From Escherichia coli (lineage in GTDB: Bacteria > Pseudomonadota > Gammaproteobacteria > Enterobacterales > Enterobacteriaceae), in the NCBI RefSeq assembly GCF_003018255.1, contig NZ_CP027440.1: a stretch of 64,000 nt of DNA. One strand, 5' to 3'. The notes beneath the pieces were generated by a model. That model made no database searches and was not told the origin of the DNA. It saw only the letters and a list, made by a program, of their open reading frames with translations. The stretch's first letter is position 1. The number at the start of each line of letters is the position of its first letter. This document shows positions 920 through 4,596 of the stretch, one piece after another. The position numbers were made by a program, and so were the translations under genes.

Positions 920-1249
920 TTTCTTGCGTTATTTTCGGCACCTTTTATGTAGCGAAGGTGCCGGAATATATTCTCTTTTATTGCTTATTTGTATACCGTG
1001 CACAATATTTTTATCCCTCATATTTATAGGGTAAATTACCTGTAAAGTAGTGTCTAATTACCCGCCTCGCAAACTCGAGTTTTCAAATATCTATTTCAGG
1101 TCAAAAGATTGAATTATTCACTGGAGACGATTCGTAAATTCGCTGGATTTTTGACTAAAGTTTCTTTAGGATTTGTCTCATCGTATGATTAATTACACCA
1201 ATCGTTCAACGTCTTGCTGATAAGTGATGGCGATTATATGAGGTTAGCA

Positions 1250-1548: not shown

Positions 1549-1764
1549 TTATCATCATTCTTATTACCCATTTTTAATGAATTACAGGGCTTTTAATACA
1601 CCGCAGCAATAACAGGTTGAGTTATCTCAACACAAAGTAATAACCGTTAAGGGTGTAGCCTATGATCAACACAAATATGAAATATTGGTCCTGGATGGGC
1701 GCATTTTCTCTGTCGATGCTCTTCTGGGCCGAACTCCTCTGGATCATTACTCACTGATCCCTGA

Positions 1765-1788
1765 CCCCGCTGCGGCGGGGTTTTCATT
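1765..1788 (+). terminator. intrinsic-terminator-like hairpin (CCCCGC-tgcg-GCGGGG followed by TTTTCATTT) in the yciX–acnA spacer
   Basis: 6-bp GC stem, 4-nt loop and T-tract read directly from the sequence; lies about 135 bp upstream of the acnA start codon. Confidence 0.5.
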
Positions 1789-1920
1789 TGCTTTGCCACA
1801 AGGTTTCTCCTCTTTTATCAATTTGGGTTGTTATCAAATCGTTACGCGATGTTTGTGTTATCTTTAATATTCACCCTGAAGAGAATCAGGGCTTCGCAAC
1901 CCTGTCATTAAGGAGGAGCT

Positions 1921-4596
1921 ATGTCGTCAACCCTACGAGAAGCCAGTAAGGACACGTTGCAGGCCAAAGATAAAACTTACCACTACTACAGCCTGCCGCT
2001 TGCTGCCAAATCACTGGGCAATATCACCCGTCTGCCTAAGTCACTCAAAGTTTTGCTCGAAAACCTGCTGCGCTGGCAGGATGGTAACTCGGTTACCGAA
2101 GAGGATATCCACGCGCTGGCGGGATGGCTGAAAAATGCCCATGCTGACCGTGAAATTGCCTACCGCCCGGCAAGGGTGCTGATGCAGGACTTTACCGGCG
2201 TACCTGCCGTTGTTGATCTGGCGGCAATGCGCGAAGCGGTTAAACGCCTCGGTGGCGATACTGCAAAGGTTAACCCGCTCTCACCGGTCGACCTGGTCAT
2301 TGACCACTCGGTGACCGTCGATCGTTTTGGTGATGATGAGGCATTTGAAGAAAACGTACGCCTGGAAATGGAGCGCAACCACGAACGTTATGTGTTCCTG
2401 AAATGGGGAAAGCAGGCGTTCAGTCGTTTTAGCGTCGTGCCGCCAGGCACAGGCATTTGCCATCAGGTTAACCTCGAATATCTCGGCAAAGCAGTGTGGA
2501 GCGAATTGCAGGACGGTGAATGGATTGCTTATCCGGATACACTCGTTGGTACTGACTCGCACACCACCATGATCAACGGCCTTGGCGTGCTGGGGTGGGG
2601 CGTTGGTGGCATCGAAGCCGAAGCCGCAATGTTAGGCCAGCCGGTTTCCATGCTTATCCCGGACGTAGTGGGCTTTAAACTTACCGGAAAATTACGTGAA
2701 GGTATTACCGCCACAGACCTGGTTCTCACCGTTACCCAAATGCTGCGCAAACATGGCGTGGTGGGGAAATTCGTCGAATTTTATGGTGATGGTCTGGATT
2801 CACTACCGTTGGCGGATCGCGCCACCATTGCCAATATGTCGCCAGAATATGGTGCCACCTGTGGCTTCTTCCCAATCGATGCTGTCACCCTCGATTACAT
2901 GCGTTTAAGTGGGCGCAGTGAAGATCAGGTCGAGTTGGTCGAAAAATACGCCAAAGCGCAGGGCATGTGGCGTAACCCGGGCGATGAACCGATTTTTACC
3001 AGTACGTTAGAACTGGATATGAATGACGTTGAAGCGAGCCTGGCAGGACCAAAACGCCCACAGGATCGCGTTGCACTGCCCGATGTACCAAAAGCATTTG
3101 CCGCCAGTAACGAACTGGAAGTGAATGCCACGCATAAAGATCGCCAGCCGGTCGATTATGTTATGAACGGACATCAGTATCAGTTACCTGATGGCGCTGT
3201 GGTCATTGCTGCGATAACGTCGTGCACCAACACCTCTAACCCAAGTGTGCTGATGGCCGCAGGTTTGCTGGCGAAAAAAGCTGTAACTCTGGGCCTCAAG
3301 CGGCAACCGTGGGTCAAAGCGTCGCTGGCACCAGGCTCGAAAGTTGTTTCTGACTATCTGGCAAAAGCGAAATTGACACCGTATCTCGACGAACTGGGGT
3401 TTAACCTTGTGGGATACGGTTGTACCACCTGTATTGGTAACTCTGGTCCATTGCCCGATCCTATCGAAACGGCAATCAAAAAAGGCGATTTAACCGTCGG
3501 TGCGGTGCTGTCCGGCAACCGTAACTTTGAAGGCCGTATCCATCCGCTGGTTAAAACTAACTGGCTGGCCTCGCCGCCGCTGGTGGTTGCCTATGCGCTG
3601 GCGGGAAATATGAATATTAACCTCGCTTCTGAGCCTATTGGTCACGATCGTAAAGGCGACCCGGTATATCTGAAAGATATCTGGCCCTCGGCACAAGAAA
3701 TTGCCCGTGCGGTAGAACAAGTCTCCACAGAAATGTTCCGCAAAGAGTACGCAGAAGTTTTTGAAGGCACAGCAGAGTGGAAGGAAATTAACGTCACACG
3801 ATCCGATACCTACGGTTGGCAGGAAGATTCAACCTATATTCGCTTATCGCCATTCTTTGATGAAATGCAGGCAACACCAGCACCTGTGGAAGATATTCAC
3901 GGTGCGCGGATCCTCGCAATGCTGGGGGATTCAGTCACCACTGACCATATCTCTCCGGCGGGCAGTATTAAGCCCGACAGCCCGGCGGGTCGATATCTAC
4001 AAGGTCGGGGTGTTGAGCGAAAAGACTTTAACTCCTACGGTTCGCGGCGTGGTAACCATGAAGTGATGATGCGCGGCACCTTCGCCAATATTCGCATCCG
4101 TAATGAAATGGTGCCTGGCGTTGAAGGGGGGATGACGCGGCATTTACCTGACAGCGATGTTGTCTCTATCTATGATGCCGCGATGCGCTATAAGCAGGAG
4201 CAAACGCCGCTGGCGGTGATTGCCGGGAAAGAGTATGGATCAGGCTCCAGCCGTGACTGGGCGGCAAAAGGTCCGCGTCTGCTTGGTATTCGTGTGGTGA
4301 TTGCCGAATCGTTTGAACGAATTCACCGTTCGAATTTAATTGGCATGGGCATCCTGCCGCTGGAATTTCCGCAAGGCGTAACGCGTAAAACGTTAGGGCT
4401 AACCGGGGAAGAGAAGATTGATATTGGCGATCTGCAAAACCTACAACCCGGCGCGACGGTTCCGGTGACGCTTACGCGCGCGGATGGTAGCCAGGAAGTC
4501 GTACCCTGCCGTTGTCGTATCGACACCGCGACGGAGTTGACCTACTACCAGAACGACGGCATTTTGCATTATGTCATTCGTAATATGTTGAAGTAA
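1921..4596 (+). CDS. acnA: aconitate hydratase A (891 aa)
   Basis: Full-length ORF; aconitase-family Fe-S cysteine motifs (…SCTNTSNP…, …[11 protein letters not shown]…); RBS AGGAGG 6 bp upstream of the ATG. Confidence 0.95.

Follow-up and report, generated by a model that had tools for sequence, protein, structure and literature searches.

STnc180 is filed in Rfam as an enterobacterial 'Gene; sRNA' (RF02079). It originates from Sittka et al. (2008), in which it was listed as a Salmonella candidate located between acnA and cysB. It was enriched 5-fold in Hfq co-immunoprecipitation from Salmonella, but this figure corresponds to 5 versus 1 cDNA reads, and northern blotting detected a species of ~2000 nt, which the authors considered a processed mRNA species and not a small RNA (Sittka et al. 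2008). It was also reported that ymiA is PhoQP-dependent and induced by low Mg2+, and ymiA-yciX-ymiC has been described by Vellappan et al. as a PhoQP-dependent operon (PMC11429745). YmiC has been validated by chromosomal SPA epitope tagging (PMC6001520), is membrane-localised, and is induced at low Mg2+ (PMC11429745). In addition, ymiC-acnA is one of the candidate uORF-gene pairs proposed from transcript 3′ ends (Adams et al. 2021).

The window analysed here is a stretch of 64,000 nucleotides of Escherichia coli DNA, whose positions are converted into MG1655 coordinates by adding 1333910. Its first 5 kb contains the genes cysB, ymiA, yciX, ymiC, acnA, and ribA, in this order. The features of the locus are as follows:

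Up to 919: cysB, the gene 5′ of ymiA.
1238–1378, + strand: ymiA, which opens the upstream unit and encodes a small membrane protein (annotated by RefSeq both in the identical sequence and in MG1655).
1381–1548, + strand: yciX, second gene of the unit (RefSeq annotation).
1549–1920: gap of 372 bp between yciX and acnA.
1589–1791, + strand: match to Rfam RF02079 (STnc180), which runs from the structured leader of ymiC through its ORF to the predicted terminator (cmscan).
1662–1757, + strand: ymiC coding sequence, 31 aa, MINTNMKYWSWMGAFSLSMLFWAELLWIITH (ORF list, RefSeq, NF041484, SPA tag).
1763–1782, + strand: predicted terminator stem-loop GACCCCGC-tgcg-GCGGGGTT, with its GC core at 1765–1780 (consensus scan, folding, covariation, last helix of the Rfam model).
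1773–1786, + strand: the 14 bases CGGCGGGGTTTTCA that are deleted in part of the species, with loss of the 3′ arm and the U-tract (strain A26 alignment, junction-specific search).
1781–1790, + strand: U-tract TTTTCATTTG, which has T at 1783 where K-12 and 60% of E. coli genomes have G.
1813–1871, + strand: acnA P2 promoter block, with an extended -10 GTTATCTT at 1857–1864 and the transcription start site (TSS) at 1870–1871.
1921–4596, + strand: acnA (aconitate hydratase A), followed by ribA (ORF list, RefSeq).

The 801 bases around the hairpin are present in 5421 of 5426 complete E. coli genomes and underlie four RefSeq genes (ymiA, yciX, ymiC, and acnA). YmiA matches the NCBIfam model NF000536 with 97.2 bits, and an NCBIfam profile search with yciX gave zero matches. 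Another hairpin, CGGCACCTT-N10-AAGGTGCCG, is located 3′ of cysB at window positions 935–985; because no T-tract adjoins it, cysB transcription may run on into ymiA-yciX-ymiC. From the cysB TSS, mapped at MG1655 1333760 (PMC6131387), to the end of ymiC at the hairpin there are about 1.9 kb, a length that would be compatible with the ~2000-nt STnc180 band of Salmonella.

In the original prediction, the 370 bp at 1549–1920 were regarded as a long non-coding leader of acnA. This is refuted by ymiC, an annotated, tagged, and conserved gene that lies inside the gap at 1662–1757 and is annotated in MG1655 as b4741. YmiC scores 66.3 bits against the NCBIfam equivalog NF041484 (cut-off 42), a match that was taken to settle its family membership. 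The ORF is preceded by an AAGGG Shine-Dalgarno-like sequence at 1649–1653, its orthologues have the motif KYWSW..S.LFW..W in common, and the mean pairwise differences at codon positions 1, 2, and 3 (8.5, 4.6, and 13.0, respectively) follow a coding-type pattern. With regard to the 60-aa ORF at 1685–1867, which had been judged to look non-coding, the present analysis agrees: its frame differs from that of the conserved ymiC and it crosses the terminator into the acnA promoter block, and it was rejected as a gene on these grounds. The stretch taken for a long non-coding leader holds a 31-aa gene and a terminator that are already present in RefSeq, NCBIfam, and Rfam, and the lesson for the reading of raw sequence is that small ORFs should be tested before a leader is called non-coding.

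The leader of ymiC (1589–1661) has structural features of its own. It begins with a conserved box, AATACAC(C)GCAGCAAT, which is followed by the hairpin GTTGAG-ttat-CTCAAC at 1616–1631; the sequence of this hairpin varies between genera and its fold is kept. In the Rfam consensus, ACACC (1598–1602) pairs with GGGTGT (1651–1656), adjoining the ymiC Shine-Dalgarno sequence. These structures may allow translational control of ymiC. E. coli EC261 (locus L084, positions 1–661) carries an IS1A insertion in the 5′ end of ymiC, which leaves a shortened YmiC, annotated with 27 aa, and the terminator.

The stem of the hairpin begins 5 nt downstream of the ymiC stop codon (1755–1757). A GC-rich stem-loop with a T-rich tract is indeed found at the site where a terminator-like hairpin had been noticed, and its core is composed of CCCCGC (1765–1770), the loop tgcg, GCGGGG (1775–1780), and TTTT (1781–1784). 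The motif had been placed at 1765–1788, of which the start is correct and the end is not, as the motif as written stops at 1784. A-U and G-U pairs lengthen the stem to 1763–1782, giving 8 bp with 6 GC pairs and a 4-nt loop. The RNA folds with -16.4 kcal/mol (z = -3.0 versus dinucleotide shuffles), and the hairpin is still predicted in 83-nt and 212-nt contexts, with a pair probability of about 0.89 in the ensemble of a 194-nt context. A consensus scan likewise returned the stem-loop at 1763–1782, followed by TTCATTTG / TTCATTTGCT. The hairpin lies 137–138 nt from the acnA ATG (1921), close to the original estimate of about 135 bp.

The U-tract is short and interrupted (UUUUCAUUUG), as 4 U are followed by CAUUUG; in TTTTCATTTG, T occupies 6 of the first 8 bases. 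Its T-tract score of 3.82 is lower than the values of 4.9–5.3 obtained for three of the other genera and higher than the 2.63 of the K-12 allele. Such a standardised comparison was used instead of a d'Aubenton-Carafa-type score, which varies depending on whether A-U pairs are counted as stem or tail. A strict scan for sites with a perfect stem of 7 bp, 5 or more GC pairs, a loop of 3–8 nt, and a T-rich tail gave 4 distinct sites on the two strands of the 64-kb window, compared with 0.5 ± 0.7 in dinucleotide shuffles (~8 times chance). A bidirectional terminator was rejected for this window, since on the minus strand the stem is not followed by a T tail (TCAGGGATCAG); an A-tract 5′ of the stem is present in several other genera but not in E. 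coli. Antiterminator folds were also searched for by folding 1589–1782 with either arm of the terminator blocked, and no conserved alternative emerged. One candidate, CCGCAGC (1601–1607) with GCUGCGG (1769–1775), has 7 bp, is 4.5 kcal/mol worse, and is specific to E. coli and absent in the orthologues; it was rejected.

The match to RF02079 reaches 202.7 bits (gathering score 50, E = 2e-44) and covers model positions 1–208 of 208, with the hairpin at 1763–1782 as the final helix of the model. The hairpin is, in other words, a catalogued one: Rfam has it at the 3′ end of STnc180, and it follows the annotated ymiC gene. In addition, the STnc180 northern probe, JVO-2448, falls within the ymiC reading frame, as read from the oligonucleotide sequence.

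For comparison across Enterobacterales, loci were retrieved via the AcnA N-terminus with one genome per species, covering at least 9 Enterobacteriaceae and at least about 10 other Enterobacterales; no Salmonella locus was among the matches listed. Six species among the matches listed have ymiC upstream of acnA (Enterobacter cloacae, three 'Enterobacter sp.', Pseudocitrobacter, and Superficieibacter). In all six, a GC hairpin and a T-tract of divergent sequence come after ymiC, and the hairpin 3′ end is located 136–142 nt before the acnA ATG. When the hairpins of seven species (E. coli, E. albertii, and five ymiC-bearing species) were aligned, all base-pair cells (56/56) were paired with standard pairs, and five of the eight pairs had changed on both sides; a covariation score as high was reached by 0 of 500 shuffles, and slid controls were 32–57% paired. 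Between the stop codon and the GC core, the species differ in spacing (7, 9, 12, 12, 10, about 38, and about 65 nt). In E. albertii, ymiA, yciX, and ymiC are gone and the hairpin is retained, with a compensatory change from C-G to U-A. In its locus (L003, 2180–2400), remnants of the ymiA upstream region (GGGATTTGTCTCATC) abut the retained hairpin almost directly.

Neither a KYWSW ORF in the 700 nt upstream of acnA nor an STnc180 match was found in Serratia, Yersinia, Pectobacterium, Rahnella, Photorhabdus, Providencia, and two Citrobacter species, and most of these species keep the acnA P2 block, TTGTTATCAAA..GTTAC..TTTGTGTTATCTTTAA. In Citrobacter sp. FP75 (L002) and C. werkmanii (L005), at ~2200–2400 of the respective loci, yciX is kept and unrelated sequence replaces ymiC/STnc180; a canonical hairpin with a T-tract was not seen there by eye. 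With ymiC-less species judged by the KYWSW ORF and the STnc180 match, the hairpin travels with ymiC rather than with acnA.

The hairpin is most probably the Rho-independent terminator of the PhoQP-induced ymiA-yciX-ymiC unit, by which acnA is insulated. As in intrinsic terminators generally, a stable GC-rich stem-loop is followed by a 3′ U-rich tract, a gene on the same strand ends upstream, and the structure is conserved over the sequence. The structure, its position after a conserved ORF, its compensatory conservation, and its linkage to ymiC were shown here; actual termination in this strain would be expected from them. The suggestion of a terminator for a short transcript associated with yciX, or for a small RNA, was essentially right, as the hairpin stands 5 nt past the stop codon of the operon's last gene, ymiC, and forms the terminal helix of STnc180. 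Briefly, RNA polymerase would arrive from the PhoQP-dependent ymiA promoter, from any cysB read-through, or from any internal start, and would transcribe ymiC. At 5 nt past the ymiC UGA, the nascent RNA would form the 8-bp GC-rich hairpin, and the RNA would be released in the UUUUCAUUUG tract, at about 1787–1790. Upstream transcription would in this way be kept off acnA P2, which would drive acnA alone. Termination may be only partial because the U-tract is short (score 3.82). The insulation appears to be leaky, by design or by decay, since the tract is not only short but also interrupted, the weaker TTGT form prevails in E. coli, and about one-fifth of the genomes are without the hairpin.

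The P2 start of acnA is located downstream of the hairpin, the promoter block begins ~30 nt past it, and conservation of this block extends to Serratia, Yersinia, Pectobacterium, and Rahnella. Between 1827 and 1864, over the P2 -35 to -10 region, there are TGTTA/CGTTA-like repeats with a spacing of ~11–12 bp, which are conserved across Enterobacterales. These repeats resemble ArcA direct repeats, and such sites would fit the repression of acnA by ArcA. Cunningham et al. reportedly placed, in 1997, a sigma-S-dependent start, P1acnA, 407 bp upstream, which corresponds to window position 1514, inside yciX and 5′ of the hairpin. If this start is real, its transcripts must cross the hairpin to reach acnA. 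No mention of P1acnA (-407) was found in the literature searched. By 5′ RACE, the acnA TSS was mapped to -50/-51 with the -10 box GTTATCTT, and a further 5′ end was found at -5 (PMC2760140). SMRT-Cappable-seq detected a single full-length acnA transcript class, which starts at MG1655 1335780, i.e., window position 1870 (PMC6131387). Because the hairpin follows ymiC and acnA starts at -50/-51, the hairpin belongs to ymiC, and acnA has its own downstream promoter. In the acnA 5′ UTR (window 1874–1925), an invariant CCCTGA..TCAGGG hairpin occurs just after the P2 start, and for a second CCCTG, pairing with the GGAGG Shine-Dalgarno sequence is predicted; these elements display no covariation, all being invariant. 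It was also reported that CsrA binds the acnA leader (PMC11052181).

Published transcript 3′ ends were also considered. The two Term-seq lists of Adams et al. (2021) that cover this region contain no 3′ end at MG1655 13356xx–13357xx; MG1655 carries the TTGT allele, and the operon is induced by low Mg2+. The sole + strand 3′ end within 1333823–1339157 in these lists is 1335835 (window 1925), which is four bases into acnA and not Rho-dependent (Adams et al. 2021). It is this end, and not the hairpin, that underlies the ymiC-acnA uORF entry. The locus is not mentioned in the TERMITe supplements. The lack of an MG1655 3′ end at the hairpin is weak evidence because of the TTGT allele and the mainly low-Mg2+ induction, and because the K-12 terminator allele differs, the published K-12 3′ end maps are not simply transferable to this strain. 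In the region of the acnA start codon, the Term-seq 3′ end at window 1925 and the 5′ RACE end at -5 occur together, and this clustering of ends suggests cleavage or protection there.

The terminator is polymorphic within E. coli. Its alleles were counted in 5426 complete genomes with allele-specific queries of 41–43 nt, in which a central mismatch leaves no 28-mer seed:

TTTT allele (this window): 865/5426 (16%), e.g., strain DETEC-S792.
TTGT allele: 3254/5426 (60%), e.g., K-12 and O157:H7.
14-bp deletion allele: 1138/5426 (21%), e.g., Nissle 1917 and the type strain ATCC 11775.
Other alleles: about 164/5426, one with IS1 in ymiC.

In the alignment, MG1655 has GCGGGG-TTGTCATTTG, with a T-to-G change at window position 1783, the third U of the tract, and this G lowers the T-tract score from 3.82 to 2.63. 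Strain A26, in the same alignment, lacks the 14 bases at 1773–1786; after this deletion, no hairpin remains. The TTTT allele of this window looks ancestral because TTTTCATTT is common to Pseudocitrobacter and Superficieibacter and E. albertii has TTTTC. No report of the TTTT/TTGT/14-bp-deletion polymorphism was found in the papers searched. As the terminator is weakened or deleted in most E. coli, the insulation of acnA would therefore differ by lineage and be weakest where most transcript mapping has been done. A tentative and rather doubtful extension of this idea is a strain-variable insulator, in which the TTTT allele would shield acnA from the PhoQP/low-Mg2+ unit, the TTGT allele would leak, and the deletion would let transcription read straight into acnA. 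If so, aconitase A would come under Mg2+/PhoQP or sigma-S input in a way that depends on the lineage, which could explain the distal 'P1acnA' and the listing of ymiC as an acnA uORF in K-12 studies, and ymiC translation, which stops 5 nt ahead of the stem, might adjust the leak as well. The natural TTTT, TTGT, and 14-bp deletion alleles form a ready series for examining how much upstream transcription reaches acnA.

Another reading is the attenuator of acnA considered in the original prediction. Here, transcripts started upstream, at P1acnA (-407) or the ymiA promoter, would feed acnA, and the hairpin would set their passage; in one variant, a ribosome finishing ymiC, whose stop codon is 5–7 nt before the stem, could cover the 5′ arm and so favour read-through. 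Such control would be consistent with the position of the reported P1acnA, 5′ of the hairpin, and with the 5-nt gap between stop codon and stem, which, judged from the ribosome footprint size, would put a terminating ribosome over the 5′ arm. It would also agree with a terminator that is weakened or absent in 81% of E. coli genomes, where read-through into acnA would thus be tolerated or even favoured. The candidate uORF-gene pair ymiC-acnA points in the same direction, but the 3′ end on which it is based lies at window 1925, off the hairpin (Adams et al. 2021). On the other hand, there is no conserved antiterminator, and the terminator helix has a probability of 0.89. The distance from stop codon to GC core is not conserved, ranging from 7 to about 65 nt, and ribosome masking is therefore not a conserved design. 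YmiC, for its part, is a conserved membrane protein rather than a leader peptide that acts as a sensor, and acnA and its P2 block occur without ymiC or an STnc180 match in Serratia, Yersinia, Pectobacterium, Rahnella, and the two Citrobacter species. Moreover, 5′ RACE and SMRT-Cappable-seq give acnA starts only at -50/-51, in addition to the 5′ end at -5, and 21% of E. coli genomes are without the hairpin. An attenuator of acnA is thus unsupported and appears unlikely, as the hairpin tracks ymiC, has no conserved antiterminator, lies upstream of the published starts, and is missing from those genomes; any control of acnA via the hairpin is more likely to be simple leakage than a switch.

The hairpin could otherwise be the terminator/Hfq module of a stand-alone, trans-acting STnc180 sRNA of ~200 nt with its own promoter near 1589–1605, a reading that we consider highly improbable. 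It would account for the Rfam class 'Gene; sRNA', for the Salmonella Hfq co-immunoprecipitation enrichment, which comprises only 5 versus 1 reads, and for the conserved AATACAC(C)GCAGCAAT box and the covarying hairpin at the 5′ end of the match. It is at odds with the northern signal of ~2000 nt in Salmonella, where no discrete small transcript was seen, and with the translated, conserved protein that the region encodes. No sigma-70-like promoter was found by a consensus scan of the + strand. The 4-U tail is also short for Hfq binding compared with the terminators of Hfq-dependent sRNAs. In reporters, promoter activity from the sequence directly upstream of ymiC was negligible (PMC11429745). 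A chance hairpin without function can be given almost no credence: its deletion in 21% of E. coli genomes, where nothing visibly takes its place, would be in keeping with this reading, but covariation across genera makes it very unlikely, and the constant position after ymiC and the rarity of such structures in shuffles also argue against it. The terminator of ymiC is accordingly retained as the preferred reading.

Among the described systems, RF02079 STnc180 is the same locus, strand, and sequence family, with the hairpin of the window as the 3′ terminal helix of the model; its name implies a non-coding sRNA, whereas here and in the literature it is an mRNA segment encoding YmiC. Like the 3′-end-derived Hfq sRNAs of the CpxQ/DapZ type, the segment is an mRNA 3′ end with an intrinsic terminator and a weak Hfq co-immunoprecipitation enrichment in Salmonella. 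Unlike them, it has a short U tail and no known seed region, and no discrete small species has been reported. With the attenuators of the trpL type and of mdtU-mdtJI (Adams et al. 2021), the locus shares a short translated ORF, a terminator, and a metabolic gene, as well as a stop codon near the stem. It differs from them in that there is no antiterminator fold and there are no regulatory codons, the peptide is a conserved transmembrane one, acnA has its own conserved promoter after the terminator, and the STnc180 match is missing where the ORF is missing. In comparison with the canonical Rho-independent terminators at E. coli operon ends, the U-tract here is short, interrupted (UUUUCAUUUG), and polymorphic within the species. 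In all other respects listed, the hairpin resembles them, with a GC-rich stem of 6–8 bp, a tetraloop, a 3′ U-tract near a stop codon, a T tail on the + strand only, and compensatory changes that preserve the structure.
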